DNA from: a virus
Length of the DNA stretch: 64,000 nt
Reading direction: 5' to 3' (one strand)
IMG/VR virus record: IMGVR_UViG_3300025168_000036
The translations under genes were made by a program, and so were the position numbers. A model generated the notes under the pieces. It saw nothing but the letters and a program-made list of their open reading frames with translations. It was not told the DNA's origin and did not search any database. The stretch's first letter is position 1. Every line of letters starts with the position of its first letter. Shown here piece by piece: positions 1,022 to 55,222 of the stretch.

Positions 1022-1477
1022 TCATAATAAATCTTCTTTTTTCATTAATACTATATTGTTTAATATTTCTAAGCCAGATAAGTCTCTAGCCATTTTGTTG
1101 TGCAAGTATACAACGCGAGTAATTCCTGCTTGCAGTATAAGCTTGGCACATTCTTTACAAGGTGCAAGTGTTACATATAGTGTTGCACCTTCACAGCTAG
1201 TACCATGTCTAGCACACTTAAGTATGGCATTAGCTTCCGCGTGTATTACTCTCCAATCTGTTTTTTCTTCTCCTGCACCTTCAATGCCATCTATTGGAGT
1301 TATAACTTCACATCTATTATCCATACCACTAGGCATACCATTGTACCCATCGCTAATAATCATCTTACCTTTAACAATAAGACAACCTACCTTAGCTCTA
1401 TTACAATGAGAAAGTTTGGCCCATTCAAGAGCCATTCTCATATAAGCCTTATCATATCTCCACTGTTTAGCTGGCAT
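1022..1477 (-). CDS. dCMP deaminase
   Basis: VGCLIV...GYNG, HAEANA and PCKEC zinc motifs. Confidence 0.95.
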   Translation of the reverse strand: MPAKQWRYDKAYMRMALEWAKLSHCNRAKVGCLIVKGKMIISDGYNGMPSGMDNRCEVITPIDGIEGAGEEKTDWRVIHAEANAILKCARHGTSCEGATLYVTLAPCKECAKLILQAGITRVVYLHNKMARDLSGLEILNNIVLMKKEDLL

Positions 1478-30450: not shown

Positions 30451-30451
30451 A

Positions 30452-33189: not shown

Positions 33190-33235
33190 ATGTATAATAT
33201 AACAATTTTTTGTGAATTACTTAACTTTTTTAATT

Positions 33236-36412: not shown

Positions 36413-36866
36413 CGAATTTTATCTCGCCCATTTCATTACATGCCTCTAAGAATCTCTTAAAGTGCTTAGTGTCTTTTGTTTCTAATTTAGACTCATACTT
36501 TAGTGTGCCCTGCGAAGCACTAGAAGCCTCATCTTCTGTTAGCTGAACAATTGGTGTGTATGACCAGCCCCATTTATCCTTGCGCCCCTCAGGATATATC
36601 ATTCCTCTCTCAGTCTGTATAGTTGTTGGGTACCAATATGATTCTCCATCATCAAATCTTAGGTCTTTCATTAATTTTGGCATATTCGATTCATACTTTT
36701 CTATATCAAAGTCTGGGTTCTTTTTATAATTTAACGGATTTTCATTAGTATAGAATCCACTTCCAACACACATCTTTGACACTCCATGTCTATCATCAAG
36801 CTCTTGTATTACATGCTTTTCATTTGTTATTGGGCTTACTACCCATTCAGCTTTGCTATTATCCAT
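36405..36866 (-). CDS. hypothetical protein
   Basis: ORF in operon context. Confidence 0.6.
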   Translation of the reverse strand: MDNSKAEWVVSPITNEKHVIQELDDRHGVSKMCVGSGFYTNENPLNYKKNPDFDIEKYESNMPKLMKDLRFDDGESYWYPTTIQTERGMIYPEGRKDKWGWSYTPIVQLTEDEASSASQGTLKYESKLETKDTKHFKRFLEACNEMGEIKFDG

Positions 36867-38119
36867 TATACTTTCTCCAGTTTTGGTATGTTTAACTTAA
36901 TCTTTTTTGCAAACTTTGGAAGATTTGATTCAAGTATTTTATCAAAACTTTTTGTCATTTCATCCAAATTAAAGTCTTCTCTTATTAATCTTGCCTGCTT
37001 TCTTGCATCTGGTATATATGTCTTATAATTCTTAAATACATCTTTTAATATACTTGATGCATAGCCATAATCAACATAAAACCATTTCGAGCCTTTTAAT
37101 ATCATATTATTTGCTGCAGATTTGTCCACTTCCATTAGCTTACCTGGTAGCTTAATTGCATGTGTAGTGAAGTCTACTTGTCCTGACCAATTTGATACAA
37201 TTAGTGGCTTTTGTGTTATACAGAATTCTGCTAGTGGCCTTCCATATCCTTCACCATGAGAAAATGACACCATAGCCTTAATCTTTGGATGATTATATAA
37301 ACCATTCATCTCGTCTTCAGTTAATTTACCTTCAAGAACATATATGTTTGGAGGATTATCATATCCTTCAGTAATTTGTTGTATCTTTTTATCTATTTCG
37401 TTATATTCAAGTATGCTAAATGTTGCACCAGATGTCTTTATTACTAGTGCTGGCCTCTTTGATTTGCCTGTATTCTTAAATGTTTCTAAGAATGTCTTTA
37501 TTGTTCCACCAATATCTTTTCTGTCATGGCCAAACCCTCCTGCAATCCAATGTCCTGTAAATAAGAAGCAAAAGTCTTCATCTATATTGTCTAGGCTATC
37601 TACTATTGTAGCTGGTATCTCAGCCTTGTCAACCTTTCTAAATACATCTGTATCTATTCCTTCAAATAGTACGTCTATTGGAACTTCACACTTAAGCGAG
37701 CCTATAATTTCACCTGTTTGGTCATTTTTTTTATCATATACTGTATCCACAAGAATTTGCCTTGCGTGGTGTGATGGTACGATTACTCTGTCCATTCTAT
37801 TACAGCCATCTATCCACTCGTGAGGTGCCTGTGTTGTTTCTATTCCAGCAGTAATTCCTATATTATATTTTGCAACTTTCTTGAATTCATTAGGTACTGA
37901 TAGCTGCATGAATACATCAATTTGTTGCTTTTGATCTTTAAGTACATACTTTTCAAATTCTGGAAACTTATCATTTGGGCAGTCTCCCCAGTTTGTTGGA
38001 ACACATTTAATATCAAACCTATCCATAGCTATTAAGCTTTTTAATAGATCTCTTGCATGATCTCCATATCCAGATCTTGAAAATATTGGGGCCTGAAAGC
38101 CTATTGTTGTTTTACTCAT
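36866..38119 (-). CDS. GT-B glycosyltransferase (GT4-like)
   Basis: SGYG, GEGYGRPLAE, SNWSG motifs. Confidence 0.85.
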   Translation of the reverse strand: MSKTTIGFQAPIFSRSGYGDHARDLLKSLIAMDRFDIKCVPTNWGDCPNDKFPEFEKYVLKDQKQQIDVFMQLSVPNEFKKVAKYNIGITAGIETTQAPHEWIDGCNRMDRVIVPSHHARQILVDTVYDKKNDQTGEIIGSLKCEVPIDVLFEGIDTDVFRKVDKAEIPATIVDSLDNIDEDFCFLFTGHWIAGGFGHDRKDIGGTIKTFLETFKNTGKSKRPALVIKTSGATFSILEYNEIDKKIQQITEGYDNPPNIYVLEGKLTEDEMNGLYNHPKIKAMVSFSHGEGYGRPLAEFCITQKPLIVSNWSGQVDFTTHAIKLPGKLMEVDKSAANNMILKGSKWFYVDYGYASSILKDVFKNYKTYIPDARKQARLIREDFNLDEMTKSFDKILESNLPKFAKKIKLNIPKLEKV

Positions 38120-39537
38120 CTTATAACTCCCGTAGGGTATTTTATTAATTTATTATTTGTTTTTCTTTTTAGTGTAAATATTTTTCTAGGCTTAAATGAA
38201 TTAAGACAAATATCAATAGAGTTAGATACGCCATCTGCCATTGCTTGCGCAGTAAAATTATTTGCTAAGGCCCATTCTCTACCTTTTGTTCCAGCTGAAG
38301 ATCTTTCATCTTTGCTTAATGAATATACACTATTTATTGCATTTGTTATATCACTTACACTAACTCTACTATCATAAATATAAGGTGTTACTGGTGAACC
38401 TACCAAGTTTATTTGTGGCCACATTGGAAATGCCCATTCACCATGTTCTTTATATCTACCATTACTATTACTTGGCCAAGATTCTGTATAGTCATTTACT
38501 GTTAGGTCATTACCTTTTTCATTCTTAAAGCCCATCTGGTCCTGCAGGCCACCTATACAGCTTGCAATAATTGGTGTTCCTGACATTATTGATTCCATTA
38601 CACTAAGACCAAATCCTTCAGCTGAGCTTGGTTGACAGGTTACATCTGAAAGATTGTATAGATAATTTAGCTGATTTGATGGTATCTTTCCACTTGAGAA
38701 TATAACATTTGCTTTAGGAGCTAATGCTTTAACTACTGCAGGGAGATCTGTTCCATTTTGATCTATTGGATCTGTATGTAGTATTAGAAATGCATTTTGC
38801 CTTTCAGCCTCAGTCTCTAGTGAATCAACAAATGTTTTATATGCTAGTATTAAATCTTGTGGTCTCTTTCTTTGTATATTTCTGCTATTAAATAGTAAAA
38901 CAAAAGAATCATCACTTAGTTGTGGGAAATATTTATCCTTAAATTCAATTAAGCCCTTATCAGATTTGTCAAGTGGCTTAAATACCTTTTCATCAACTCC
39001 ATGTGGTACATATGTTAAATCTACACCTTCTTTTCTCGGATTCTTTTGGCATACATGCTTATTTATATTATATGTTTGTTTTGATATTGCAATTAGTGAA
39101 TCACAACAGTCATAGAATGGCTCATTCCAATGAGGAAAAGGAAGGTCATCCCATATATTATAGTACATAATAGGAGTAGTTTGTCTTAATTCATGCTCCA
39201 TTTGATATAGCCAACCCCAAAACCTTGGGTCTGTAAAGTGTATTATTGCATCAGGCTTCTCGATTGATAATATCTGCTGTAATATTTGCTTGTTTCCATA
39301 ACCATCTACTGGATATAACTTAAGATAGAAGTTATCAACACCGCTATCCCTTTTTACATCCTCATTTTTACTTAAGTCAACTACATTACCTTTATCTGGT
39401 GATTGTAGTGCACCTGCTATCTGTACCCAGTCATATTTATCTAAAGACTTTAGTACTATTTCTTTACTCATTGTGCCAACACCAGACGGTAGCCTAATAT
39501 CATCACCTAATAAGAGTATCTTCTTCTTTTTTGTCAT
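38116..39537 (-). CDS. GT-B glycosyltransferase (GT4-like)
   Basis: PHGVD, RNIQRK, EGFGLSVMES..SGTP, GGL. Confidence 0.88.
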   Translation of the reverse strand: MTKKKKILLLGDDIRLPSGVGTMSKEIVLKSLDKYDWVQIAGALQSPDKGNVVDLSKNEDVKRDSGVDNFYLKLYPVDGYGNKQILQQILSIEKPDAIIHFTDPRFWGWLYQMEHELRQTTPIMYYNIWDDLPFPHWNEPFYDCCDSLIAISKQTYNINKHVCQKNPRKEGVDLTYVPHGVDEKVFKPLDKSDKGLIEFKDKYFPQLSDDSFVLLFNSRNIQRKRPQDLILAYKTFVDSLETEAERQNAFLILHTDPIDQNGTDLPAVVKALAPKANVIFSSGKIPSNQLNYLYNLSDVTCQPSSAEGFGLSVMESIMSGTPIIASCIGGLQDQMGFKNEKGNDLTVNDYTESWPSNSNGRYKEHGEWAFPMWPQINLVGSPVTPYIYDSRVSVSDITNAINSVYSLSKDERSSAGTKGREWALANNFTAQAMADGVSNSIDICLNSFKPRKIFTLKRKTNNKLIKYPTGVIR

Positions 39538-39551
39538 AACCTTTTCCCTAA

Positions 39552-39722: not shown

Positions 39723-39758
39723 AACCTCCAATTATATTTGTATATAAATATATATTCA

Positions 39759-40160: not shown

Positions 40161-40387
40161 TTTCTATTCTTATTTCTATTTGGTCTATATATATACCATG
40201 CCCTTTCGTGAAAATAGTATAATATCATTTTTGTAAAGAGCTCAAGTCCTCCCACCTTTAGCCCAACAATTGGGTCTCCTGTAATTAGCCAACCTAATGC
40301 CATTGTGTCCAATGTTCCTATAGCTCTCCACGTAATAGTTTTAACTATGTGCCTTTTTCTTGCTGGCCAACTATTTCTTACAATCAC
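40157..40387 (-). CDS. DUF2061-like small membrane protein
   Basis: KTITWR.IGTLDT and YYFHERAW. Confidence 0.8.
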   Translation of the reverse strand: MIVRNSWPARKRHIVKTITWRAIGTLDTMALGWLITGDPIVGLKVGGLELFTKMILYYFHERAWYIYRPNRNKNRK

Positions 40388-40737
40388 AAGGAACCCTCCT
40401 TTCTCATTTGAGCTCTAATCTTTGTTGCTGAAATTTGTTCAACTTGATTAGGTGGTACGTGTTCTATAACTTCATATCCTACACCTCTACCATAATTTAC
40501 TGATTCTATGTCTGGAACTATTGTTATTTTTATTCTACCTTCATCTATTAAGCCTTTTAGCTCACTACTTAGATTTGTTAGAACCTCATGTGGTGTCCAA
40601 GGTTGATTTTCATTTGGTTTAACATCTCTTATTGCTATCCATACATTCTTACCTTCATTAAGCCTTTGATCTATTAACCATCGGTGTCCTTTGTGCCAAG
40701 GCTGCCACCTTCCTATAAACATTGAGTACTTTTTCAT
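40384..40737 (-). CDS. HIGH-type nucleotidyltransferase (cytidyltransferase-like)
   Basis: GRWQPWHKGH and ISATKIR motifs. Confidence 0.85.
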   Translation of the reverse strand: MKKYSMFIGRWQPWHKGHRWLIDQRLNEGKNVWIAIRDVKPNENQPWTPHEVLTNLSSELKGLIDEGRIKITIVPDIESVNYGRGVGYEVIEHVPPNQVEQISATKIRAQMRKEGSL

Positions 40738-41495
40738 ATCCCTTTATCCCTTTTTACATTTATTGCTATTGCTCTTTTGCCAGACTTATTTGGGTCCATA
40801 TCATTTATAATATATCTAGGGCCTCTTTCAATACCCATAATTAATTTATCATATGGGATTCCACTTTTTGTTAGCTCACCTATCGTAAGCCCCTTTAATG
40901 TCTCTGGTCTAGCAGTTGTTAATATTATCATATGGCCATCATCATACCATTCATTTAACTTATCCACTGTTGCCTTTATTGGTTCTGCATCTGTAGATTC
41001 ATATGTTTCAAATTTTCTGTACTTAAATATTGTTCCATCAATGTCGCAGAAGTATGTATTTTTCTTCTTTCTATTAAATTCAATACCTTCAAGGCACTCA
41101 TCAAGTGTCGGAGAGCCTGTTGTATCAATATCTATAAAGTGCTCTATTGGCTTTTCATAATCTTGTGCAAAATATTTCTCTCTTCCCCTTATATCAGTTG
41201 TGTGTACATATATCTCAGTGACATCATTTGTCTCTTTTAATTCATCTCTCATATCTCTATAAGGTGCAACTACTGACACTACTGGTGTAAACCCTTTATT
41301 GTCTAGGAATCTACAAAGGTCTAGTACTGACCTTATATTCTTTCTCCTACCTTCTGGACTATAATTAAAATTTTGAAATAGATCCCTTAATCCATCTCCA
41401 TCTATGTGAATACAATTATCACTACATCTATCTATAAGTGCTTTTGCTAATGTTGTCTTTCCAGCTCCTGGCTGGCCTGTAAACCAATATATCAT
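40734..41495 (-). CDS. cysC: adenylylsulfate kinase fused to a HAD domain
   Basis: WFTGQPGAGKTT, DGD.LR, R..NI, YEKP; C-terminal DIDGT, TAR and ND motifs. Confidence 0.85.
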   Translation of the reverse strand: MIYWFTGQPGAGKTTLAKALIDRCSDNCIHIDGDGLRDLFQNFNYSPEGRRKNIRSVLDLCRFLDNKGFTPVVSVVAPYRDMRDELKETNDVTEIYVHTTDIRGREKYFAQDYEKPIEHFIDIDTTGSPTLDECLEGIEFNRKKKNTYFCDIDGTIFKYRKFETYESTDAEPIKATVDKLNEWYDDGHMIILTTARPETLKGLTIGELTKSGIPYDKLIMGIERGPRYIINDMDPNKSGKRAIAINVKRDKGI

Positions 41496-43828: not shown

Positions 43829-45487
43829 TTACATCATTCCAAATCCACCACCCATTGGTTGGGCAGCTTCTTCTTCATTGTTATTTTCATTAATAATTAT
43901 ACACTCAGTTGTTAAAATTGTACCTGCAACTGAAACAGCTTTTTCTAATGCAACTCTTGTTACTTTTGCTGGATCAATAATACCAGATTTCATCATATCA
44001 ACAACTTGTTCTGTTCTTGCATCAAAGCCCATAGTAAAAGGTACAGAGTCTTCATCTGACATTCCATCAAATGCATGAATCTCATTCCAGATATTTGCTG
44101 CATCAAGGCCTGCATTTTTCATAATGATTTCAAATGGCTCTTGTACTGCTTCCATCACAATTCTATAGCCTGTAATTTGGTCCTCATTTTCAAATACATC
44201 ATCAACAACATCATCATCAAAGCAACTTCTTAGTGCAATTCCTCCACCAGGTACTATACCTTCATCAAGTGCAGCCCTAGTAGCATGTAATGCATCCTCA
44301 ACTCTGTCCTTCTTTTCCTTCATTTCAATTTCTGATTCAGCACCTATTTTAAGAATTGCTACACCTCCAGCCATCTTTCCAACTCTTTGCTGATATACTT
44401 CTTTTTCATAGTCTGAGTCTGATGTTTCAAGTAGTACCTTAATCTCGTTTACTCTATTTGCTATTGATTCTGGGTCACCTGCACCATCAACTATTGTTGT
44501 TGACTTTCCACTAACAGTTACTGTTTTTGCACTACCTGCAAAGTCTGATACATTAATAGTATCTAGTTTATGACCTTTATTCTTACTTATTACTGTTCCT
44601 CCAGTAATTGTTGCAATATCCTCAAGCAATTGAGTTCTCTTTTCACCAAATTCAGGTGCCTTTACTGCAGCAACCTTAAGTGTTCCCCTTGCCTTATTTA
44701 CAATAAGTCCAGCTAGTGCCTCGCCTTCAACATCATGAGCAACTATTAATAGTGGCTTGTCTTGTGCGATTGCAGCTTCTAATGGTTTTACTAACTCTTT
44801 AAGTGTTTGAATCTTTTTGTCAACCAATAATATCCATGGGTCTTCAAATTGTGCATGCATGTGATTATTATCTGTAACAAAGTATGGTGATATATAACCT
44901 CTATCAAATTGAACACCTTCTACTGTTTCAAGGTATGTATCATTTGTTCTAGACTCCTCTACTGTAATTACACCTTCTCTTCCTACTTTATCCATTGCAG
45001 TTGCAATTAACTTACCAACCTCAGCATCATTGTTTGCTGAAATTGTAGCCACCTGTTCTATTTCTTCTTGAGAAGAGATATCTGTTGCTATATCATCAAG
45101 CTTTTCTACTACTGAAGTTACCCCAATATCCATTCCCCTTTTTATATCAACTGGATTAGCCTTTAGTTCTGTGATACAATTAAAACCTCTTCTTAGTATT
45201 GAATTTGCTAATACAGTGGCTGTAGTTGTTCCATCACCTGCCTCATCGTTAACTTGATTTGCAACCTCTTTTACCATTTGTGCACCTGCATTTTCAACTT
45301 CATCTTCCAAAAATACTTCCTTTGCAACAGAAACACCATCTTTTGTTGATACAAACTCACCATTTTTTTCAAGAATTACATTTCTACCTTTAGGTCCTAA
45401 AGTTGCACTAACTGCTGTTGAAAGTTTTTGAACACCTTTTCCAATTAGGCTTCTTGCATCTTCGTTAAATTCAATTCTTTTCTTCAT
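43829..45487 (-). CDS. groL: chaperonin GroEL
   Basis: [44 protein letters not shown]-like tail. Confidence 0.97.
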
Positions 45488-45780
45488 TATTTTGTCTCCT
45501 TATAAATTGTTAAAATTTCATCTTCTCTACATACGATGAACTCTTCTCTATTAACTTCAAGTCTTTTAGCTGAAAATTTTGGATAGTATACTACATCGCC
45601 TACCTTACATTGCATATGACCTCTTTTTCCAGTATTTAGTAGTGGGCCGGGACCTACTGCTAATACTTCGCCTTTAAGTGATACTTCTGCATCAACTTCT
45701 GGCATAATTACTCCACCTGATGTCATTTCATCTGGTTCTAATCCTTTTAATACTACATTTCCTCCTGTTGGTGTAAACAT
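45487..45780 (-). CDS. groS: co-chaperonin GroES
   Basis: TSGGVIMP, GEVLAVGPG, KVGD.V. Confidence 0.93.
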   Translation of the reverse strand: MFTPTGGNVVLKGLEPDEMTSGGVIMPEVDAEVSLKGEVLAVGPGPLLNTGKRGHMQCKVGDVVYYPKFSAKRLEVNREEFIVCREDEILTIYKETK

Positions 45781-46499
45781 TATATTGCCTCCTTATCTTT
45801 AATTCTTAATTTATTTTCTATTTCATGTGAGCTTCTTACACATGATATTCCTAATTGGTCTTTCATTACTTCTGGTGTTGTGCAAGACTGGTTAAAGCTT
45901 GCAAAATCTGTTTTACTTGGGAACCTTCCACAACCTGCAAATAGACACCCAAATGCATTTGATAAATAATCTGCAGCTGCGTAGTCACACTTTCCTATTA
46001 AGTCACATCCTGGCTTGAAGCTTTTTGCAGCTTCAATTCCCATATCGATCATCTTCTCTCTTAATAGCCAATGTAAACCTACAATAAACTCTTCCTCGCA
46101 AAACTTAAGCCTTCTCATCATCTGTCCTCTAAGAGAATTAATATTTTGCTCAACTACGTATGTACATTCTCTTGACATTAAATTAAACAATTCAGGATTT
46201 TCGCTTTCAGATACTCTGTGCTTTTCCAGTTCAGATAGCGTTTTTATGGTTTTGTCGCGAAAGTCTGAGTTCTTCTCCATTAACTCATATACCTGAGTAT
46301 AAACCACATATGTTGGGTTTGGATTAACCTCATATTGCTTAAATTTAATTCCTACTCTAGCCCTTGAATGTTGATCATATTGGCAAATTGGTGTCCCTTT
46401 TACTCTATATGTTATCATACCAGAAGCCTGATGCCAATTCAAAATGTCTACTTCTAGACCTTTCACTCCACACTTTATTTCAATGTTATTAACTTTCAT
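45780..46499 (-). CDS. ThyX-fold protein B (keeps QxxRxR, lacks the SxR motif; Cys-rich tail)
   Basis: ITYRVKGTPI..YDQHSRAR and N..SL.....RR align by eye with ThyX. Confidence 0.6.
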   Translation of the reverse strand: MKVNNIEIKCGVKGLEVDILNWHQASGMITYRVKGTPICQYDQHSRARVGIKFKQYEVNPNPTYVVYTQVYELMEKNSDFRDKTIKTLSELEKHRVSESENPELFNLMSRECTYVVEQNINSLRGQMMRRLKFCEEEFIVGLHWLLREKMIDMGIEAAKSFKPGCDLIGKCDYAAADYLSNAFGCLFAGCGRFPSKTDFASFNQSCTTPEVMKDQLGISCVRSSHEIENKLRIKDKEAI

Positions 46500-47307
46500 A
46501 AAATAATTCTTTATCCTTTTTGCTTAAATCTTCAAATTTATATTCTCTTATCTTATGTAATACAACATCTGTATTTTCAAATATTACACTCAGATATAAA
46601 CCTATAAATGGGAATTGTTTTTCAACAACACTTACAAGTTCTTTATAGAGTATTGCCAATGACTGCTCTTTTACATTATCACCAAACTTTCCTGATGCAT
46701 TGAATCCTCTCATTGATACTAATGAAAGTAAATTTTGGCCAAAATGATATGAGTGTTGATAGCTTTGTGGTAAGAATGTTCTACCAGACTGCCAACTTGA
46801 TTGATCTTCATTTAATACATCTGCATATATTTGCTTTAAGTCATTAAATGTTTTCTTTTCTTCTGATGATAGTTTTCTTTTGCCTACAGTAATAATGTCT
46901 ACATCAGACTTATTATTGTCTCTGCATCCTATACTCATAAAACTTGTGAATGGGGTCTGAGTGTGGTAGTCAAATAGCCATCTTGGTACACCTCTTACTC
47001 TGAATATAAATTGTACCATTTCTCTTGCTTGTGGTAGTGTATTGTGAGTCAATACAGCTTTTACAACCTCAAACTTACCTTCAGGAGTTGTTTCTGGCCA
47101 TTTTTGCTTAAACTTATTGTCACCCCAAGTAGAAGTACTTGTCACAAACATTGACTTATAAGGATTTGTCATGTGGTCTTCTAATGTGACCTCAACCTCA
47201 TCAATCATATCGTGAAATTCAGTAACAACTGGTGGCCTCTCTTCTGGGAGAGTTCCCATAACTTTTCTTAGGTTTTCTACAACCTCGTAACTTAATTTAT
47301 CTTCCAT
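46489..47307 (-). CDS. ThyX-fold protein A (keeps xCRD and R..LP, lacks RHR)
   Basis: EMVQFIFRVRGVPR, SIGCRD and GRTFLPQ...QNL.SL align by eye with ThyX. Confidence 0.7.
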   Translation of the reverse strand: MEDKLSYEVVENLRKVMGTLPEERPPVVTEFHDMIDEVEVTLEDHMTNPYKSMFVTSTSTWGDNKFKQKWPETTPEGKFEVVKAVLTHNTLPQAREMVQFIFRVRGVPRWLFDYHTQTPFTSFMSIGCRDNNKSDVDIITVGKRKLSSEEKKTFNDLKQIYADVLNEDQSSWQSGRTFLPQSYQHSYHFGQNLLSLVSMRGFNASGKFGDNVKEQSLAILYKELVSVVEKQFPFIGLYLSVIFENTDVVLHKIREYKFEDLSKKDKELFYES

Positions 47308-47343
47308 AATTTTATATAACCTTTATAATATAATAAATATCTC

Positions 47344-48312
47344 TTAAATATAAAAATGTAACGAATCAAATTTTATATTTATTTTAATATTTTCTACTTT
47401 AGTATTTTTATCAAACCAGATTTTTATCATTTTGCATATAGATATAAAGTCATGGTTAAATAGCCCTACGTTTGAGGACCTAAAGTTTACACTTACATTT
47501 AATGTATTATTTCTAAGTAGAATATGAACATATGACAGGCACTCATCATCTGTAAATACAAATCTTCTACTATGTGAGTCTTCCTTCTTTCCATAGTATC
47601 CTGATAGCTCTGATTCTATCTTTTTTGTGAATTTAGCTAATTGGAATTTATAACTGTCAACTTCAAGCTGCATATAGTCATTTATATTCTCCAACCCTGT
47701 ATATAGATCTTTTGATGCCCAACTTTCCACATCGTCATAAGACATATCTAAATCCATCTTATAATTTATAAGCTCCTTAGTACCACCAACACTAGCTCCG
47801 TATTCCTGTAATGCAGTCATTGCTGTTCCTATTTGGTGCTCTGGGCTTAATAAAAATTCATTATACATTTCTATAATGCCATTAATTCTTTTTGCAATAG
47901 ATCCTGGATCATCCTCTCCATCTATTACCCAAAAGTTTCTATGCTTTTCAAATCTAATGCATAGATCTTTATATATTCTTGCCACATGCTTTATTGACGA
48001 CCAAGACTGGAATTCATCTCCCCTATTACAATATCTCCTATGCAACTCTGCCTCACTAATGTCAAAATAGAAAACTATATTGTCATTAAGATAAGATATA
48101 AACTCATGTTCTCTTTCTTCATTATTGTCGAATCTGTTATGTAGCATGCCGTAAGCCATTATTGACATCAAGCCTCTATCGTTTAAGAGGACGTCATAGT
48201 CGTTGCCAGATTGTATAATTTCCCAAACCTTTTGGTATTGAGTTGTCTTACCTGAACAGTCAGGTCCTTCAAATATCAATTGTAGTCTTTTATTCATCAT
48301 TAAACCTTTCAT
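47344..48312 (-). CDS. dNMP kinase fused to a ThyA/dCMP-hydroxymethylase-like domain
   Basis: EGPDCSGKTT and DR..SIMAY; C-terminal SRR..C...LLR..LN..VNFRSS.....HDF...SLHFY. Confidence 0.75.
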   Translation of the reverse strand: MKGLMMNKRLQLIFEGPDCSGKTTQYQKVWEIIQSGNDYDVLLNDRGLMSIMAYGMLHNRFDNNEEREHEFISYLNDNIVFYFDISEAELHRRYCNRGDEFQSWSSIKHVARIYKDLCIRFEKHRNFWVIDGEDDPGSIAKRINGIIEMYNEFLLSPEHQIGTAMTALQEYGASVGGTKELINYKMDLDMSYDDVESWASKDLYTGLENINDYMQLEVDSYKFQLAKFTKKIESELSGYYGKKEDSHSRRFVFTDDECLSYVHILLRNNTLNVSVNFRSSNVGLFNHDFISICKMIKIWFDKNTKVENIKINIKFDSLHFYI

Positions 48313-50536
48313 AAATTTTATTTAAGAACATTGTCTCACTATCTTTAAATCTACCAAGAGATATTAGCACCAATTCACCAGGTTCTATTTCCTCAAAACC
48401 TTTCATCTTATTCTGCCATATAAAGAAGTCTATTGAGCCATTGTCATCTTTTAGTGTTGCAATACCCATAGGCTTACCAGAAGACTTACTTCTTTTTGCA
48501 ATATATTTATCTACTATACCTATAATATAACAACCCATCTTGTCACCAAGTTTCATCCTTACTTCACTTGGTAGCATTGTATTTTGAAACTTAAAGTCTC
48601 TTTCTGTAAGTATTTGTACCATCTCTTTAATAGTGTCATTTATAAGATACTTTACATTAGTAGACATTGCACCATATTCAAGTTCTTTTAACTCTGTAAA
48701 GTTAAACTTTTTATCTTCATAGTCAGGTTGCTTTTTCTTTGGTAGCCTACCTTTATGAAATTGATTATAAGTATCCACCTCCTCATCCCATGAATCAAAT
48801 GCACCTGCAAATATTAAGTTTTCAACCTTTGACTTATTTTTAATTTCAGATCTGTCCAAGAAGTCCTGGAAGCTATTATATGGTGCGTGATTTAGTATTA
48901 GCTCCACATCACTAGGTGAAACAGTCTTAATTGCATCAAAGCCAAATAGTATACTTTTATCAACTATTGTAAATCCTTTTTGAGATGCATTTATATTTGC
49001 ACGTTCAACTTTAAAGCCTAGTTTCTTTGCAACATTAATGTGCTTCATCATATCAGTTCCTGGTTCAGAGTTGTCAAGCATAACCTTCATATATTCAATT
49101 GGGTAATTTGCCTTAAAGTATCCACCCCAATAAGATATTAATGAATAAGATACAGAATGGGCTTGATTAAAGCCATAGGCTGCAAATGCAGCACACTTTT
49201 CAAATAGATCCATTGCATCTGATTCCTTGATATGAACTGATAAGCCTTTGATAAACTTTTCCTTGTATAGACCAATATTCTTTTGCCTTTGCTCCATTGA
49301 TTCCCAGTCACGGTACTTAACTAATACCTTTCTAAACTTATTTGATTCTGAATCTGTAAACCCTGCAATAAGTGCCAGTTTCATAATTTGTTCTTGATAG
49401 GTAATAATTCCATATGTTTCTTCTAGGACTGTGTTAAGTGGTTCTGGCCACCTTTCGTACTCACCTGAATGTTTACGTTTGGCATACTCAGTTGGCATAC
49501 CTTCCATAAGTGGGCCAGGTCTTAATAGTGCAGAAACTGCTGATAGTTCAGCAACTGAGTCTGCCTTAACATCTTTTAAGATACCTTTTGCTGTGCCTGA
49601 TTCAAATTGAAATATTGTATCAGTATCTGATGTGTGGAATATTTTCTTAAATGTATATTCATCATCTAGTGGAATGTCACCTAGTTTTAGATTAAGTCCA
49701 TGCCTTTTATTAACAAGGTCCATAGTTGCACCTACTATTGATACATTTTTAAGGCCAAGTATATCAAACTTTACATATCCCATATGCTTAAGGCCGTAAG
49801 TTCCAGTACCTTCCTCCCATGCTGATGATATACCATCACCAATTTTATTTAGTGCAATATTTTCATCTAAGTTTTCAGATGATATAATAACACCAGCTGG
49901 ATGTGTTCCGTAATTCCTAAGCATACCTCTAATCTTTTCTGCATAGAATTTAACCTTGGGGTATTTTGTAAAGTATTGTTTTAGTTTGTCAAAGTCATTA
50001 GCAAGTTCATCAAATGTTTTCTTTTCAGTTGACTCACCAGCCATGATAGTCTTTGTCATACCGAATGTATCCTTTGCAGGGACACCTAATGCACCAGCAA
50101 CATCTTGTATAATTGCCCTTGTTTTTGCAAGCTGATATACACCAATTTGTTTTACCTTTTCTCTACCAAACCTTTCATAGATGTAATTAATGACCTTTTG
50201 CCTTCCATGCCTACATACATCTTGATCAATATCAACAAGATCGACATCACCATCAGTTATAATCTCTGGCTTTTTATTTGTTTCAATGGGGTTTTCCTCA
50301 TAAATATCCAACAGCCAGTACAACAGACTATTTTGTTTATTACCTGGCAATTTCTTGCCTTTATTTTCGGTTATAAACGCCTGAATCTGCTTGTACTGGT
50401 CTGGATATCGTGCCTGGTAAAAATCGATTGCATCACACTCTTGTTGTAGCCAAGCAATATGCTCATCAAGACCTCTTTCCCTAAGGACCTTTGATGCATT
50501 CGTAAATATTTTATCTCCAATTAGTATCTTACTCAT
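48290..50536 (-). CDS. dnaE: DNA polymerase III alpha, C-terminal half of split gene
   Basis: DIDQD, HPAG, KFDILGL, FQFES, RPGP, YQEQ, YGFN.AHS..Y, OB fold. Confidence 0.93.
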   Translation of the reverse strand: MSKILIGDKIFTNASKVLRERGLDEHIAWLQQECDAIDFYQARYPDQYKQIQAFITENKGKKLPGNKQNSLLYWLLDIYEENPIETNKKPEIITDGDVDLVDIDQDVCRHGRQKVINYIYERFGREKVKQIGVYQLAKTRAIIQDVAGALGVPAKDTFGMTKTIMAGESTEKKTFDELANDFDKLKQYFTKYPKVKFYAEKIRGMLRNYGTHPAGVIISSENLDENIALNKIGDGISSAWEEGTGTYGLKHMGYVKFDILGLKNVSIVGATMDLVNKRHGLNLKLGDIPLDDEYTFKKIFHTSDTDTIFQFESGTAKGILKDVKADSVAELSAVSALLRPGPLMEGMPTEYAKRKHSGEYERWPEPLNTVLEETYGIITYQEQIMKLALIAGFTDSESNKFRKVLVKYRDWESMEQRQKNIGLYKEKFIKGLSVHIKESDAMDLFEKCAAFAAYGFNQAHSVSYSLISYWGGYFKANYPIEYMKVMLDNSEPGTDMMKHINVAKKLGFKVERANINASQKGFTIVDKSILFGFDAIKTVSPSDVELILNHAPYNSFQDFLDRSEIKNKSKVENLIFAGAFDSWDEEVDTYNQFHKGRLPKKKQPDYEDKKFNFTELKELEYGAMSTNVKYLINDTIKEMVQILTERDFKFQNTMLPSEVRMKLGDKMGCYIIGIVDKYIAKRSKSSGKPMGIATLKDDNGSIDFFIWQNKMKGFEEIEPGELVLISLGRFKDSETMFLNKIYERFNDE

Positions 50537-50537
50537 A

Positions 50538-51821
50538 TTATATCATTTTTGGGAATGAAGCTTTATCTCTACCTAGGTCTAAGAACCTCTCAAAGATTAA
50601 ACCCCAATCTAGTGGATTGACTTCTGTTAAGCCTAGCACAAATGCAATTAGGCTTCCTGCAACTGAACCTCTACCAGGTCCAATATATATCTTTTCTTTA
50701 TTACAATATTGTATTATGTCCTCAAGTATAAGAAAGTATCCAATGTAATTCATTTTACGTAATACTGAATATTCATATCTTATCCTATCTTTTACCTCAT
50801 CTGATATATCATTGCCAAATCTGTACTTAAGTCCATGTTTTATCTTTTCTTGAAATATGACTTGTTCATCATCATATAATTTTGGAAGCTTTACATCGGC
50901 ATCAAAGTTTGTGTCTTGAACAAGGTCAAGTATTTTGTGACAGTTATTTGCCGATTCAATAAATACATCTTCAGTAAACCACTCATTGCAGTGGTGCTTT
51001 TTCCAAGATGCATGCATTTCGTCATAGTTTTTATAATAAAGTTCTCTGGCATGATAACCTTTTAAGTTTTCACAATCAGTAATACCATCCTTATTAGATC
51101 TATCTCTAATTGTTATTAGCATGTCATGAACTTCCTGATCATCATAGCGAATATAGTGAGCGTCATTGGTCACAACTGTTTCTATATCAAGTTCTTTTGC
51201 AATCTGAACAAGTTGTTTATTACAATCAATTTGTTCTTGCATCTGATGTACTTGTAGTTCTATAAAGTATTTGTCGCCAAATCTGTCCTTATATCTTTTG
51301 GCCACACTTTTGGCCTGTTCGTAGTCACCATTCATTAAATGAAACGGTATTTCACCACCTAGACATGCAGAAGTGATTACAAGACCCTCACCATATTTAC
51401 TAAGCATTTCAAAATCTGTTCTTGGTTTAGAATAGAAGCCATTCATGTGGGCATCATTATTAATTCTAATTAGATTTTTTATTCCTTTATTATTATATGC
51501 TAAGACAAGAAGGTGAAAATACTTTCTGTATTTTTGTTTGTTTTCATCTATCTGCCTATCACCCTCAGACATAAATCTGTGATTGTTAACATATAGTTCA
51601 CAACCAAACACAGGAGTAATACCCTCTTGTCTAGCATACTTCCATAACCTGGCCCAGGATGAGATCACACCGTGATCAGTAATTGCTAAGTGACTTAAAT
51701 TGTTCTCCTTGCCGAAGTCAATAAGTTCCTGCAACTTTGAAAGTGCATCTCTGGTTGAAAATTCACTATGGCAATGTATTTGTACGAAGCCATTCTTAAC
51801 ATCTTTCCTGGGTTTTATCAT
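50538..51821 (-). CDS. dnaE: DNA polymerase III alpha, N-terminal half (PHP domain)
   Basis: HCHSEFS, TDHG, TNDAHY, GPGRGSVAGS, FERFL. Confidence 0.93.
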   Translation of the reverse strand: MIKPRKDVKNGFVQIHCHSEFSTRDALSKLQELIDFGKENNLSHLAITDHGVISSWARLWKYARQEGITPVFGCELYVNNHRFMSEGDRQIDENKQKYRKYFHLLVLAYNNKGIKNLIRINNDAHMNGFYSKPRTDFEMLSKYGEGLVITSACLGGEIPFHLMNGDYEQAKSVAKRYKDRFGDKYFIELQVHQMQEQIDCNKQLVQIAKELDIETVVTNDAHYIRYDDQEVHDMLITIRDRSNKDGITDCENLKGYHARELYYKNYDEMHASWKKHHCNEWFTEDVFIESANNCHKILDLVQDTNFDADVKLPKLYDDEQVIFQEKIKHGLKYRFGNDISDEVKDRIRYEYSVLRKMNYIGYFLILEDIIQYCNKEKIYIGPGRGSVAGSLIAFVLGLTEVNPLDWGLIFERFLDLGRDKASFPKMI

Positions 51822-51827
51822 AGTACT

Positions 51828-51890
51828 AATATAACAATTTTTATTGAAGTAAAAAAACTTTTTACGTATTATTTTTGAAAGTTATTAACA
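51828..51890 (-). promoter_or_regulatory. phage promoter with TGTTAATAACTT box upstream of dnaE-N
   Basis: same motif family as 42415-42477. Confidence 0.65.
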
Positions 51891-51891
51891 A

Positions 51892-52242
51892 TTACATGCA
51901 ATGGTTCATCCACTTTCCGTAAAACTTAAGGTATTCTTTTTCCAGTCTGCCAAACGTTAGTGTCTTATAGTGCACACTTTCTAGCTTATCATTTGGGAGG
52001 TGTGTTGAAAGATAGTTATCTATTAAATTTTGCAAACCTTTTATATCATGATACTGTATGAGATTAGTGGGAAAGCAAAACATGAACTCTTTTGTGCCGT
52101 CTTCTCTATTTAGTATATAGCTCCAAAAGTCATCTATATATAATCTTGAATCTATATTACTCTCTACTTGTGATTCCCAAAATTTAATCTCAGCCTTTGC
52201 AGCTGGATTTTCATAGAAGCAGGTTGTTAATTTTACTTTCAT
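51892..52242 (-). CDS. hypothetical protein
   Basis: ORF inside the nucleotide-metabolism block. Confidence 0.55.
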   Translation of the reverse strand: MKVKLTTCFYENPAAKAEIKFWESQVESNIDSRLYIDDFWSYILNREDGTKEFMFCFPTNLIQYHDIKGLQNLIDNYLSTHLPNDKLESVHYKTLTFGRLEKEYLKFYGKWMNHCM

Positions 52243-53161
52243 GTTTTATACCTTTATTTAGTTTTCTATCTAGTGTCTCTTCTGTATATAAGCCAAAGTT
52301 TGGCTTTAAGTATACTTCAAATCCACTATCATTTAATTTATTTGCATTATTTATATCATCATCTATACAAAATGCAACCTGTTCGGGGTCAAAGTTATTT
52401 ATAATATACTTTTCCTTCTCTTCATCAAACACAATTGCATCATAGCATATACCATTGTCCTTAAGCCACTTAATTGTGTCTGAATATATTCTAAAATACT
52501 TTTTATATGGCCTTGCGGTAAGAAGTACAACACTATATTTCTTGCATGCGTCTTTCATAAACTGCTTTGCACCATCTAGCACATCTAATGTTGCTTTTAC
52601 ACCACATGTTCTATATTCAGATTTTATTCTATATTGTTCTTTTTTATCAACTTCTGATTTGAATTGACTTAGACTTTCATAGCCAGACCACTTTAAGAAT
52701 CCACCTGGCCAATCTGCAAGTACACCATCTATATCTATAAAAGCAATCTTTTTATCAGATGCCTTAATCTTTTTCATTACCTTTTCTTGGTTAAATTTAG
52801 CCTCTACAACTCTTGATTTGTCCATAAACTTTTCATATAAGTCATCTACACTAAAGCCATTAAGTTGAATTATTCCAAATAGATATTTTAATACATCAAC
52901 ACATTCCTCTAATACATTATCATTTACATCTTCAGTCTTTTTTGATGTGTGCATCTTCCAATCTATTTCATCTAGTACTTCATATACTTCCTTAGATAAT
53001 GCTAGAACATATTCTTTATTCCATTTTATCTTTAATTCCTTATCATTAACGACATCATCTATTGTAAGATTGTGTTTATCTTTAAAGAACTTCTCTGTAA
53101 AGCTCTTTTGTAATTCGAAAATTTCTTTTAATTTATCTTTCATCTTAATTCCTTTGTCCAT
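52211..53161 (-). CDS. all-alpha dNTP pyrophosphatase (dimeric dUTPase/dCTPase-like) fused to a HAD 5'-nucleotidase-like domain
   Basis: EVYEVLDEIDWK, EECVDVLKY; DIDGVLAD, LTAR, IDD. Confidence 0.8.
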   Translation of the reverse strand: MDKGIKMKDKLKEIFELQKSFTEKFFKDKHNLTIDDVVNDKELKIKWNKEYVLALSKEVYEVLDEIDWKMHTSKKTEDVNDNVLEECVDVLKYLFGIIQLNGFSVDDLYEKFMDKSRVVEAKFNQEKVMKKIKASDKKIAFIDIDGVLADWPGGFLKWSGYESLSQFKSEVDKKEQYRIKSEYRTCGVKATLDVLDGAKQFMKDACKKYSVVLLTARPYKKYFRIYSDTIKWLKDNGICYDAIVFDEEKEKYIINNFDPEQVAFCIDDDINNANKLNDSGFEVYLKPNFGLYTEETLDRKLNKGIKHESKINNLLL

Positions 53162-54099
53162 CCTAGAACTCTATCTAGTACCTCATTTGCCTTTACCTTA
53201 TGATTCCATTGTGCGAATCTACCTAACATATATATTTTGTCTATCTTATCTAGATTAATACTATTTTGAATTTGGAATGGCAAGCCTTCAAATTTATGTA
53301 TTATAGGATAAGGTGGAGTTATTGGCTCCACAGACTCATATACCATATAATTATTAAAGTATGTCTTTCTTGACCAGCCTTCTGTGTGACCATAAATATA
53401 GTCAAACTTGGATAGCTCACCTTTATTTGTCTGGTAGAAACATTTTGGTAGTGTTGTAAGATCATATTTATCTAGCTCATCTCCATCCCATATTGAACCA
53501 AGTGGAGATTCCTTAGTAAGAAGCTTTAGATTAAGTGTGTTTATAACAACATTATAGCTTCTACACATTGAAGGTCCTGCACCATCCTTTGCATATATGT
53601 ATCCGTGTGAGTCTACCTTTGTAATTCTTTCTCTTTTAAGCTGACCTCTATCAATATCAATTATTTTTAATAGTGTTTCAAATAAGAATTTATAGCTATC
53701 CTCACCCATGTCTTCTATTTCTAGGTGCTGTATTTCATTCTTGCCTTCAGATAGGTAGCTTGACTCAGACTTACTTTTTCCTCTAGTAAGTTTTGTATAC
53801 TTATTCTTAAAACCTGGAGGTAGGACTACGTCTCTTTTTCCATCTTCCTCATACCCAACAATTGCTACAACTGTTTTTATTCTATATGAATGCAAACCTG
53901 CATCATTTAATACACTTCTAACGAATTTTTCTGAATTTTCTGTTTTTTGGATTAATCTAGGTCCTGGAATAAACGGTAAATTTAACTGGCCTAGTGGATT
54001 TTCATCATAAACAGCATATTCTGGAAAGTAGTATCCAGCTATTAAACCTGCCGGACCTCCACCTAATATACAACCTTGTTTCATTTTATTTTCTTTCAT
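53140..54099 (-). CDS. FAD-dependent oxidoreductase (Glf-like architecture)
   Basis: GGGPAG dinucleotide-binding motif, PGPRL, C-terminal LGRFAQW. Confidence 0.7.
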   Translation of the reverse strand: MKENKMKQGCILGGGPAGLIAGYYFPEYAVYDENPLGQLNLPFIPGPRLIQKTENSEKFVRSVLNDAGLHSYRIKTVVAIVGYEEDGKRDVVLPPGFKNKYTKLTRGKSKSESSYLSEGKNEIQHLEIEDMGEDSYKFLFETLLKIIDIDRGQLKRERITKVDSHGYIYAKDGAGPSMCRSYNVVINTLNLKLLTKESPLGSIWDGDELDKYDLTTLPKCFYQTNKGELSKFDYIYGHTEGWSRKTYFNNYMVYESVEPITPPYPIIHKFEGLPFQIQNSINLDKIDKIYMLGRFAQWNHKVKANEVLDRVLGWTKELR

Positions 54100-54134
54100 A
54101 CTTTAATATAACAAATTTTTGTGAATAAAAAAAA

Positions 54135-55019
54135 TTATAAGCAACTTAAATATCTTTCACCTCTGTCACATAGTATTGTAATTGCGTTTGTTTTATCATT
54201 ATCTCTTAACCATTGAAATGCAGCTTTAACATTAGCACCTGCACTTATTCCTACAAATAGTCCATATCTTAGAGCTAAGTGTCTTGCAGCTGCCTTAGCA
54301 CATTCAGTTTTAACTGGTACAATATCAGAAACAAAGTTTAGATCTACTAAAAATTTGCTTCCATCACCAATTCCTTGTATGCCATGAAGTCCTGGTTCTC
54401 CTCCGCTCATTACTGCACTTTCCTCTGGCTCAACTGCTACTATATTTATTCCTGGAACTTGCTCCTTTAGATATCCTCCTGCACCCATTATAGTTCCTCC
54501 AGTTCCTGTGCCTACTACAAATGCCTCTGGCCAGTGATCTGTTAGTTCATAGTATTCATCATGTATTTCTGGTCCTGTTGTTTTGTAGTGTGCCTCTATA
54601 TTAAGTGGGTTATGAAATTGATTGCAATTAAAGTATCCAAATGTTTCTGCTAAAGTATCTCTAGTTTCTATTGCTCCATCAAAATCTCCGGCATCAACTT
54701 GTATTAAGTCTGCTCCGTAAAACTTTAGCATTTGTTTTCGCTCTTCAGACATATTAGATGGCATAACAATTTTCATCTTATAGCCCCTTTCTGCTGCTAA
54801 CATTGCAAAAGCTATTCCTGTATTGCCCGAAGTTGCCTCTATTAGTGTGCCTCCTTTTTTAATTAGCTTTCTATTTTCGGCATCATTTAATATGTATGTT
54901 GCCATTCTGTCTTTAACACTACCTCCTGGGTTCATAAACTCACATTTGCCCCATACTGTATACTTTCCAAATCTAATTGGTATAAGCGGTGTATTACCTA
55001 CATTTTTGCTTAATCTCAT
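54135..55019 (-). CDS. cysK: cysteine synthase (PLP)
   Basis: VGNTP, NPGGSVKDR, TSGNTG, GTGTGGT, HGIQGIG, DRGERYLS. Confidence 0.93.
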   Translation of the reverse strand: MRLSKNVGNTPLIPIRFGKYTVWGKCEFMNPGGSVKDRMATYILNDAENRKLIKKGGTLIEATSGNTGIAFAMLAAERGYKMKIVMPSNMSEERKQMLKFYGADLIQVDAGDFDGAIETRDTLAETFGYFNCNQFHNPLNIEAHYKTTGPEIHDEYYELTDHWPEAFVVGTGTGGTIMGAGGYLKEQVPGINIVAVEPEESAVMSGGEPGLHGIQGIGDGSKFLVDLNFVSDIVPVKTECAKAAARHLALRYGLFVGISAGANVKAAFQWLRDNDKTNAITILCDRGERYLSCL

Positions 55020-55222
55020 TTCTTTTTCGAAACAAAATCTATTGTATCCTCTTGTGATGGCCACCTTATCTCCTTTTTGCAATCTTTACATACCCACATT
55101 ATGTTACTGCTACCTTCCAAAAATGATAGCTCTTGCATTTTATGTGTACACTCTTTTTGTATTTTATTTATTTCTTTTTGTAAACCTTTAATCTTATCAT
55201 TAAGATTTTCTACTGGTTTCAT
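55016..55222 (-). CDS. small zinc-binding hypothetical protein
   Basis: C.H and CKDC. Confidence 0.5.
   Translation of the reverse strand: MKPVENLNDKIKGLQKEINKIQKECTHKMQELSFLEGSSNIMWVCKDCKKEIRWPSQEDTIDFVSKKK

Follow-up and report, generated by a model that had tools for sequence, protein, structure and literature searches.

A kinase-fused minimal ThyA-fold domain in the replication region of a marine phage and its possible part in making 5-hydroxycytosine DNA

Eight open reading frames (ORFs) lie on the minus strand between positions 45780 and 54099 of the viral DNA stretch IMGVR_UViG_3300025168_000036 of IMG/VR, which is 64,000 nucleotides (nt) long and is referred to here as the window. 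They all run in the same direction, with overlaps or gaps of no more than 70 nt, and encode a flavoprotein, a fusion of an all-alpha nucleoside triphosphate pyrophosphatase with a HAD nucleotidase (PPase-HAD), a conserved protein of 116 amino acids (aa), the two halves of a DnaE polymerase, a fusion of a nucleotide kinase with a minimal ThyA-fold domain (mini-ThyA), and two ThyX-fold proteins, ThyX-A and ThyX-B (Table 1). The six gene and fold assignments made in a preliminary description of this block hold when Pfam, PHROG, structure models and family profiles are used. The locus, called here the module, belongs to that part of the genome of a large uncultured marine phage which serves replication and nucleotide metabolism. 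The reading favoured in this work, which is tentative and in our estimate falls a little short of an even chance, is that before replication another base, most likely 5-hydroxycytosine (5hoC), takes the place of cytosine, and that it is possibly glycosylated afterwards.

Table 1. Features of the module and of genes elsewhere in the window that may be linked to it
Feature	Coordinates	Strand	Basis and remarks
UDP-galactopyranose mutase (UGM)-like FAD-binding protein, 319 aa	53140..54099	-	GGGPAG (GxGxxG) motif; two-domain FAD fold; closest to UGM
All-alpha NTP pyrophosphatase (residues ~6-132) fused to NT5C-type HAD nucleotidase (~137-290), 316 aa	52211..53161	-	Pfam, PHROG
Conserved 116-aa protein	51892..52242	-	CFYExPAA...WE, C.P and KTLxFG motifs; same module position in 21/24 loci
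DnaE N-terminal half (PHP and start of palm), 427 aa	50538..51821	-	Pfam PHP 5.5e-40, DNA_pol3_alpha positions 3-100; phrog_405
DnaE C-terminal half (palm with catalytic Asp motifs, fingers, HhH, OB), 748 aa	48290..50536	-	Pfam DNA_pol3_alpha 10-260, finger, HHH_6
YorR/RB69p045-type nucleotide kinase, N-terminal domain of the 322-aa fusion	47848..48312	-	Structure match to YorR (3kb2); profile matches
Minimal ThyA-fold domain with a signature like that of 5-hydroxy-dCMP synthases (C258, R278, S279, N281, D288, H319)	47344..47847	-	Foldseek, VIA, hhalign
ThyX-A, 272 aa	46489..47307	-	Weak Pfam Thy1; keeps S88/R90 and R147 equivalents, without Q75/R78/R80
ThyX-B, 239 aa	45780..46499	-	phmmer link; keeps Q75/R78/R80 and R174 equivalents, without S88/R90/R147; Cys-rich C-terminal part
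dCMP deaminase	1022..1477	-	Pfam dCMP_cyt_deam_1 2.5e-27; association with module inferred
SDR sugar epimerase/reductase-like gene, 235 aa	6846..7553	-	Pfam RmlD_sub_bind 5.6e-28
Two GT-B (GT4-type) glycosyltransferase genes	36866..39537	-	Pfam Glycos_transf_1 for 38116-39537

The 322-aa fusion protein has 21 relatives, down to 36% identity and all of about 320 aa. Its AlphaFold model (predicted local distance difference test, pLDDT, 84.5) is composed of a kinase at about residues 10-155 and a ThyA fold at about residues 155-322. The top Foldseek match of the latter is the dCMP hydroxylase AfhB of phage HY126 (PDB 9iqu, E 3.9e-6), followed by thymidylate synthases, the T4 dCMP hydroxymethylase and MilA. 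Structural alignment with VIA gave Z 11.5 for AfhB (root-mean-square deviation, rmsd, 4.0; 162 aligned residues), Z 11.1 for MilA (rmsd 4.2, 151 aligned) and Z 10.8 for the thymidylate synthase of L. casei (rmsd 3.4, 143 aligned). When the split forms of other lineages were added, hhalign matched the family at 95.4% (E 1.9e-8) to a reference set consisting of RB69 gp48, its Acinetobacter and Rhizobium homologues, the gp42 hydroxymethylase and Escherichia coli ThyA.

The mapping of mini-ThyA residues to E. coli ThyA is identical by MAFFT and by hhalign. The catalytic C146 corresponds to C258; R166/S167, which together with R126 bind the phosphate of the dNMP, to R278/S279; R126/R127 to R249/R250; Y94/G95 to Y240/G241; L143 to D255; D169 to N281; N177 to D288; and H207 to H319. 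N281 is located within FRSSN, which aligns with RSQN of RB69 gp48 and RSCD of E. coli ThyA. The equivalents of R126, C146, R166, S167 and H207, as well as the Asp at position 177, are invariant in the 27 distinct sequences of the family. Position 169 is Asn in 23 of them and Asp in none, and the position of L143 is occupied by Asp or Glu in 22. The invariance of the Cys, the Arg/Ser pair, His207 and the specificity Asp in 27 diverged sequences speaks for a working enzyme whose substrate is a cytosine nucleotide, and the guess of the preliminary description that a cytosine derivative is made agrees with the Asp at position 177.

Lee et al. (NAR 2026, PMC13326640) have reported that the ThyA homologues of RB69, DLP3 and RL38JI make 5-hydroxy-dCMP (5hodCMP) with flavin and O2. 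In the same work D169N is the diagnostic residue for 5hodCMP synthases, and nine out of nine chosen homologues made 5-hydroxydeoxycytidine. In a joint alignment, neither the folate-contacting region of ThyA around W80/W83 nor the approximately 55 C-terminal residues after H207 have a counterpart in mini-ThyA. The Asn at position 169 and the lack of both regions suggest, therefore, a 5-hydroxylation as in RB69, DLP3 and HY126, and the product of mini-ThyA, as judged from its residues, is most likely 5-hydroxy-dCMP formed by flavin-type chemistry.

A chemistry of the T4 type, in which a folate-dependent dCMP hydroxymethylase or methylase would provide 5-hydroxymethylcytosine (hmC) or 5-methylcytosine nucleotides to be activated by the fused kinase, is improbable. 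The T4 dCMP hydroxymethylase and MilA are among the structural matches, and an Asp at N177 and an acidic residue at L143 also occur in hydroxymethylases. However, these enzymes keep Asp169 (the gp42 hydroxymethylase of PS2 reads RSND), which is never present in the mini-ThyA family, and the W80/W83 stretch and the residues after H207 are missing from it. On these same grounds the hydroxymethylation that the earlier parallel with T4 implied is less likely for this enzyme.

With respect to the kinase domain, its best structural match is YorR of Bacillus subtilis (3kb2; VIA Z 12.7, rmsd 3.1, 138 aligned), followed by thymidylate and deoxynucleoside kinases, and the profile of the 322-aa family matches YorR (PDB 2axp) with E 5.9e-9. 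By hhalign, the kinase family is homologous to RB69p045, Ac3_076 and RHph_140 (97.4%, E 1.4e-11 over 115 columns, including the DRG..S..VYG motif), whereas the match to the gp1-type dNMP kinase reaches 7.9% only. The homology to the RB69p045-type kinases extends beyond the P-loop. These three kinases adjoin the 5hodCMP synthase in RB69, in an Acinetobacter phage and in a Rhizobium phage, respectively, and each published 5hodCMP-synthase cluster carries beside the synthase a YorR/Tmk-like "nucleotide kinase", itself untested (Lee et al., PMC13326640). The hhalign matches of kinase and mini-ThyA thus indicate that homologues of both halves of the fusion stand side by side in proven 5hoC clusters. 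Since kinase and mini-ThyA are separate genes in other lineages, their fusion in the window links the two steps. No protein with this fused architecture was found in BFVD.

The conservation of the module was studied in 37 IMG/VR loci that were fetched with ThyX-A and scored by family hidden Markov models; the counts given in this text refer to the 24 loci whose upstream flank is available over the full 10 kb. The flavoprotein, PPase-HAD and the kinase are present in all 24 loci, DnaE and ThyX-B in 23, mini-ThyA in 22, and the 116-aa family in 21. An SDR sugar epimerase/dehydratase is embedded in the module in 21 loci. All the module families are on the same strand, in several gene orders. The commonest one is flavoprotein, PPase-HAD, 116-aa protein, kinase, epimerase, mini-ThyA, unsplit DnaE, ThyX-A and ThyX-B, and other orders (for instance, that of locus L052) keep the set. 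The gene set is also found on a jumbo contig of 391 kb that has no DnaE in the vicinity and, in one contig, beside a family-A polymerase together with a single full-length ThyX and a mini-ThyA of 129 aa. Additional genes in some lineages encode a dCMP deaminase, a methyltransferase, a dUTPase_2 that stands free, or a UDG-like domain, either on its own or as part of the kinase. That the module is kept through rearrangement and across polymerase types speaks for a functional unit, and the recurrence of the gene set in other phage genomes, proposed in the preliminary description as a check, was confirmed in this way.

The kinase fusions to a UDG-superfamily (PF03167) domain are those of L043:7590-8543 and of a 318-aa gene on a 104-kb contig in ERZ1292644, which additionally has a separate 423-aa PF00303 thymidylate-synthase homologue. 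A free UDG-like gene lies inside the module at L015:3259-3837.

Production of a free modified nucleotide or nucleoside that is not a DNA base, such as a MilA-like natural product, a signal or an inhibitor, is most improbable. In the structural comparison of mini-ThyA the score of MilA, a CMP hydroxymethylase from an antibiotic pathway, comes close to the top one, and the nucleotidase, the sugar epimerase and the UGM-like enzyme could tailor a nucleoside. However, the module stands beside the replicative polymerase in 23 of the 24 loci, amid replication genes, and the fused kinase would push the product to the di- and triphosphate.

The polymerase itself is divided. The PHP, palm, fingers and HhH domains are detected by Pfam across two ORFs separated by one base between the stop and the next ATG. 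The translation of the 748-aa half contains the motifs LVDIDQD and VKFDILGL, its OB domain being weak. This half restarts at DNA_pol3_alpha position 10 while the N-terminal half covers positions 3-100, so that the start of the palm is present twice. The split is retained in relatives at 73-95% identity, and the more distant L015, L024 and L043 carry unsplit DnaE proteins of 1104-1139 aa. The best DnaE matches in GenBank phages are below 32% identity.

The module genes are not equally conserved, as shown by a comparison of positions 47344-51821 of the window and the flanking module genes with L024 (L024:4610-9941). Identities amount to 83% for PPase-HAD, 73% for ThyX-A, 65% for ThyX-B, 53% for the flavoprotein and 47% for the 116-aa protein, and to 30% for DnaE and 28% for both the kinase and mini-ThyA. 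The gene order is also unlike that of L024, since in the window DnaE is split and located upstream of the fused kinase and mini-ThyA. These uneven identities suggest that polymerase, kinase and mini-ThyA have been exchanged, or have diverged faster, jointly. If the exchange was a joint one, polymerase and modified nucleotide would be adapted to each other.

The flavoprotein (model pLDDT 91.2) aligns with the UGM of Aspergillus fumigatus (AfUGM) over 295 of its 319 residues (VIA Z 21.8, rmsd 3.1). Its family profile matches UGMs (E 1.4e-4), and R244, Y236 and Y251 correspond to R327, Y317 and Y334 of AfUGM, Arg and Tyr residues of the kind that hold the UDP diphosphate. There is no match to Pfam GLF, and the second essential Arg of UGM, which is on the mobile loop, was not located. 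UGM is the closest enzyme, and the protein may belong to this group. The family was found in viruses only. Its gene lies directly upstream of that of PPase-HAD in all 24 loci, and the two frames overlap in the window and in L009, L013 and L015. Of the roles proposed earlier for the flavoenzyme, that of supplying a sugar donor fits the UGM-like fold.

The 316-aa PPase-HAD protein matches Pfam dUTPase_2 (28.4 bits, cut-off 22.9) and MazG (23.2 bits, cut-off 22), and its NT5C score (22.4 bits) is just under the cut-off of 24.8. A DIDGVLAD motif (HAD motif I) is located at residues 143-150. In 25 sequences, the acidic residues E50, E58, E61, E85 and D89 of the pyrophosphatase and the residues D143, D145, K249, D267 and D268 of the HAD domain are at least 95% conserved, and the motifs of both domains are intact. 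Searches with the whole protein gave matches to actinophage HAD domains only. Comparisons of the HAD domain with the sugar phosphatases RB69p051 and Ac3_079, and of the pyrophosphatase with the NTP pyrophosphatase RHph_I34, were not significant.

The gene of the 116-aa protein, which is inside the block, had been passed over in the preliminary description. No match to this protein was found in Pfam, PHROG, NCBIfam or Atlas. Its profile resembles none of those of the other families of the module, and its candidacy as a missing piece of the ThyA fold was rejected.

The ThyX-A family is large, viral and strongly conserved (115 matches), and PF02511 is detected in many of its members. ThyX-A itself scores 21.2 bits with Pfam Thy1 (E 2.6e-4), below the gathering score of 24.8, and its family profile gave no match in PDB. 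ThyX-B has no Pfam match, and an exhaustive phmmer search ties it (E 9e-27) to viral proteins of about 330 aa that have Thy1 scores of 50-74 bits. The ThyX homology of the pair is evident only via these relatives. Their profile matches the ThyX of Thermotoga maritima (TM0449) with E 5e-8 and is the basis of the residue map; one of them alone, P0140, gave no match in PDB, and a search with full-length viral ThyX matched only a distant PB1-like ThyX.

The full-length viral forms keep Q75, R78, R80, S88, R90, R147 and R174 in one chain. In ThyX-A, S125/R129 correspond to S88/R90 and R176 to R147, and TQT replaces RHR. In ThyX-B, Q43, R46 and R48 correspond to Q75, R78 and R80 (the motif being RAR) and R130 to R174, the other equivalents being absent. 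The H79 position is Ala. Neither single chain has the motif RHRx7-8SxR together with R147 and R174, and the set is complete only across ThyX-A and ThyX-B. Two ThyX-fold genes had been taken as two enzymes, but these complementary residues and a predicted interface point to one heteromer: ThyX-A and ThyX-B look like complementary degenerate paralogues that constitute a single heteromeric dTMP synthase.

The prediction of the complex supports the binding of ThyX-A to ThyX-B. Its score of 0.71 is one that 58 of 80 solved complexes and 2 of 110 mismatched pairs attain, and the best of three controls scored 0.00. The same residue segments were found at the interface, at least 86% of the contacts were common to the runs, and the partner pLDDT was at least 82. 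Because ThyX homotetramers have been solved, this result may only reflect likeness to them. The complementary pair would clearly illustrate how an obligate heteromer can arise in evolution from a homotetramer whose active sites are shared.

A Cys-rich extension at the C-terminus (FCExE...CD...C.Y...FGCLF.GCGR...FN.SC), which T. maritima ThyX lacks, is common to ThyX-B and the viral proteins of about 330 aa (P0140, P0147, P0148, P0156 and P0185); it may be a metal or Fe-S site. Several members of the viral family of about 330 aa contain inteins.

An alteration of thymidine, or of both pyrimidines, is very improbable. In that case PPase-HAD would remove dTTP and dTMP and the ThyX heteromer would make a product other than dTMP. 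The combination of a pyrophosphatase and a dNMPase is the classical exclusion logic of phages with hydroxymethyluracil or uracil, and NT5C-type nucleotidases, characterized by the DIDGVLAD motif present here, prefer dUMP and dTMP; the Cys-rich extension of ThyX-B and its full-length relatives could also be adduced. However, the ThyX pair jointly, and its single-gene relatives in one chain, keep all the canonical dUMP-binding residues, which fits plain dTMP synthesis, and we know of no ThyX with a product other than dTMP.

Other genes of the window could be linked to the module. The dCMP deaminase has a homologue beside the module in L015, L044, L050, L051, L054 and L055. The SDR gene is the best window match of the module epimerases of the 21 loci, although it is shortened (235 aa versus about 344 aa in relatives); the epimerase has left the module in the window lineage. 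This gene forms a group, far from the module, with an Hsp20 gene (6338-6775) and a GT2 gene (7516-8283). In L011, in the L024 group and in L055 both GT-B genes are conserved on the downstream side of the module, and L050 has one of them there. The first, 36866-38119, has no Pfam match in the window, while its L011 orthologue has one. Their consideration as candidate DNA glycosyltransferases is speculative.

A glycan island extends from 26843 to 41495. According to Pfam, it contains a GDP-mannose dehydratase, a DegT fragment, an epimerase, an FkbM methyltransferase, GT10, a sulfotransferase and GT11, and further GT2+GT25, GT2 and GT4 genes, SLOG/DprA-like and cytidylyltransferase-like genes, and an APS kinase-HAD fusion.

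It is unlikely, though worth serious weighing, that all these functions are ordinary pyrimidine supply and pool sanitation, by means of ribonucleotide reductase (RNR), deaminase, ThyX heteromer, dUTPase-like pyrophosphatase, salvage nucleotidase and dTMP-type kinase, in a phage whose DNA is canonical. Mini-ThyA would then be a nucleotide-binding or regulatory domain or a relic, and the flavoprotein and glycosyltransferases would serve a cell-surface or virion glycan. Large phages commonly carry auxiliary genes for such enzyme classes, the best family match of the pyrophosphatase is to the dimeric dUTPases, the GDP-fucose, sulfotransferase and FkbM genes of the island are typical of polysaccharide synthesis, and the phage has been recovered in many short-read marine metagenomes. 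However, canonical metabolism has no ThyA-type reaction of this kind, the catalytic and specificity residues of mini-ThyA have stayed invariant in the diverged family, and both kinase and mini-ThyA have homologues that adjoin each other in proven clusters for 5hoC.

The replacement of cytosine by 5hoC can be outlined as a series of steps, whose substrates, products, cofactors and DNA chemistry we infer from the directly observed folds, homologies, residue conservation and synteny. The pyrophosphatase domain would lower the pool of a canonical dNTP, supposedly dCTP by analogy with gp56 of T4 and RB69. Cys258 of mini-ThyA would attack C6 of dCMP and the enzyme would modify C5, likely to 5-hydroxy-dCMP with flavin and O2, as in RB69 gp48, DLP3 gp80 and AfhB. 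The fused YorR/RB69p045-type kinase would phosphorylate the modified nucleotide and the split DnaE would incorporate it, while the ThyX-A/ThyX-B heteromer and the dCMP deaminase would supply dTMP. The UGM-like flavoprotein and the SDR epimerase could prepare a sugar-nucleotide donor, and the downstream GT-B glycosyltransferases may glycosylate the hydroxyl group on the DNA. The succession of pyrophosphatase, ThyA-fold enzyme on dCMP, kinase and phage polymerase is in line with the T4-like logic of the first proposal. That some modified cytosine nucleotide is made appears somewhat probable; if so, it is quite probable that the modification is a 5-hydroxy group, and a base hydroxylated in this way has an even chance of being glycosylated afterwards.

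Different observations weigh against this reading. Mini-ThyA has about 165 aa (129-174 aa in relatives) versus 217-258 aa for the proven 5hodCMP synthases, lacking the full-size catalytic domain recognisable by sequence that those enzymes possess; it has neither a PF00303 match (E <=0.01) nor a tblastn match in GenBank phages (E <=10), and 4 of the 27 members of its family do not have Asn at position 169. The comparison of the pyrophosphatase with the RB69 gp56 dCTPase was not significant (hhalign 3.8%, E 0.011, 107 columns), and the HAD nucleotidase, being of the NT5C or 5'(3')-deoxyribonucleotidase type, would remove the presumed substrate of mini-ThyA if dCMP were among its own. As regards the sugar, oxidases follow UGM at a distance of only about 2 Z units in the structural comparison of the flavoprotein, protoporphyrinogen oxidase with Z 19.6 and L-amino-acid oxidase with Z 18.3. 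Its gene is translationally coupled to that of PPase-HAD rather than to one for a glycosyltransferase, the module itself contains no gene of the latter kind, and the large glycan island could serve a non-DNA glycan. Finally, the compared loci belong to related phages, so that the counts are not independent and part of the co-occurrence is inherited synteny.

In the surroundings of the module there are genes for GroES/GroEL, cysteine synthase, both RNR subunits, DnaB, FEN, a RecA/UvsX-like protein, gp32 and UvdE. The cysteine synthase (CysK/CysM-like, PALP 7e-68) is encoded at 54135-55082, directly upstream of the flavoprotein gene. Its homologue in the L024 lineage, 73% identical, is downstream of the module and adjoins a PD-(D/E)XK nuclease; being on the other side of the module, the cysteine synthase moves independently of it. 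A scan for sigma-70 promoters and terminators found sites no more numerous than in shuffled sequences.

The contigs with this phage come from marine and seawater metagenomes, many of them short-read, with no RNA dataset and no raw nanopore reads among those listed, and an identical ThyX-A protein is also encoded on a 147-kb contig. Among GenBank phages, megablast with positions 45000-55000 and tblastn with the mini-ThyA domain, ThyX-A and the flavoprotein gave no match, and none carries the module gene set. Single-sequence PDB searches with the 319-, 272-, 322- and 239-aa proteins returned noise only. At 21378-24305, a 975-aa protein is encoded that ends in a type 9 secretion system (T9SS) sorting domain (Por_Secre_tail, E 1.7e-11). 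This tail, the G+C content of 31-37% and the marine origin agree in hinting at a member of the Bacteroidota as the host of the phage.

A more specific proposal, unlikely as a whole, is that in the phages of the 37 IMG/VR loci, probably infecting Bacteroidota, a flavin-type ThyA of about 130-170 aa makes 5-hydroxy-dCMP and the base then bears a sugar new to DNA. This would be a furanose that the UGM-like enzyme produces together with the SDR epimerase, or even a fucosylated, sulfated or methylated glycan of the island, with polymerase, kinase and mini-ThyA being exchanged together.

If the replacement of cytosine by 5hoC is true, hypermodification of the 5hoC type would be common in ocean phages that use DnaE, and would extend beyond the small number of cultured phages, T4-like or of Rhizobium, in which it is known. 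Mini-ThyA would be the smallest known catalyst of the ThyA superfamily and would bear on the switch from folate to flavin, which was left open by Lee et al. As to what the kinase of the published clusters does, itself untested, the fusion seen here would offer an argument from gene structure. The UGM-like and epimerase genes embedded in the module hint at sugars not yet seen on DNA, a matter of relevance to the evasion of restriction and CRISPR and to sequencing bias in marine viromes.

The closest known systems are the glycosylated 5hoC pathways of RB69, DLP3, HY126 and RL38JI (AfhB; PDB 9iqu and 9iqc). They share with the window a ThyA fold with Cys146, N177D, D169N and an acidic residue at L143, an adjoining homologous YorR/Tmk-like kinase, an all-alpha NTP pyrophosphatase, and GT-B glycosyltransferases in the genome. 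For instance, YorR is the top structure match of the DLP3 gp78 kinase, as it is of the window kinase, and RL38JI, whose 5hoC is glycosylated, likewise encodes a UGM together with a kinase, an NTP pyrophosphatase and a synthase. However, the catalytic domain of the window is about two thirds the size of theirs and is found by profile or fold only, it is fused to the kinase in the window lineage, and the polymerase is DnaE and not of family B. The window module adds the heteromeric ThyX, the fusion of pyrophosphatase and NT5C nucleotidase, the 116-aa protein and, in relatives, the SDR epimerase, whereas arabinose genes of the AfhE/AfhF type are absent from the window.

The hmC pathway of T4 (gp56, gp42, gp1, gp43 and glucosyltransferases) follows the same logic, that is, to purge dCTP, modify dCMP, phosphorylate the product, incorporate it and glycosylate it. 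It differs in that gp42 keeps Asp169 and uses methylenetetrahydrofolate, while the window kinase is not gp1-like and the window pyrophosphatase is fused to a nucleotidase. Both ThyX genes descend from the viral family of about 330 aa that matches TM0449 of T. maritima (PDB 1kq4); this protein is a homotetramer, whereas the window pair is likely an obligate heteromer in which each paralogue is devoid of the complementary half of the residues. The UGMs of A. fumigatus (3ukk), Trypanosoma cruzi (4dsh) and E. coli (Glf, 1i8t) have the FAD Rossmann motif, the fold and the equivalents of R327, Y317 and Y334 in common with the flavoprotein, but they contain 367-517 aa versus 319 aa, and the window family is exclusively viral and coupled to a nucleotide pyrophosphatase gene. 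Both the pathway logic and its chemistry were published in 2025-2026, so that the description of the locus as a categorically new pathway is not maintained: the window module is a variant of the known one, new in its polymerase, its fusion, its ThyX heteromer and its accessory genes.

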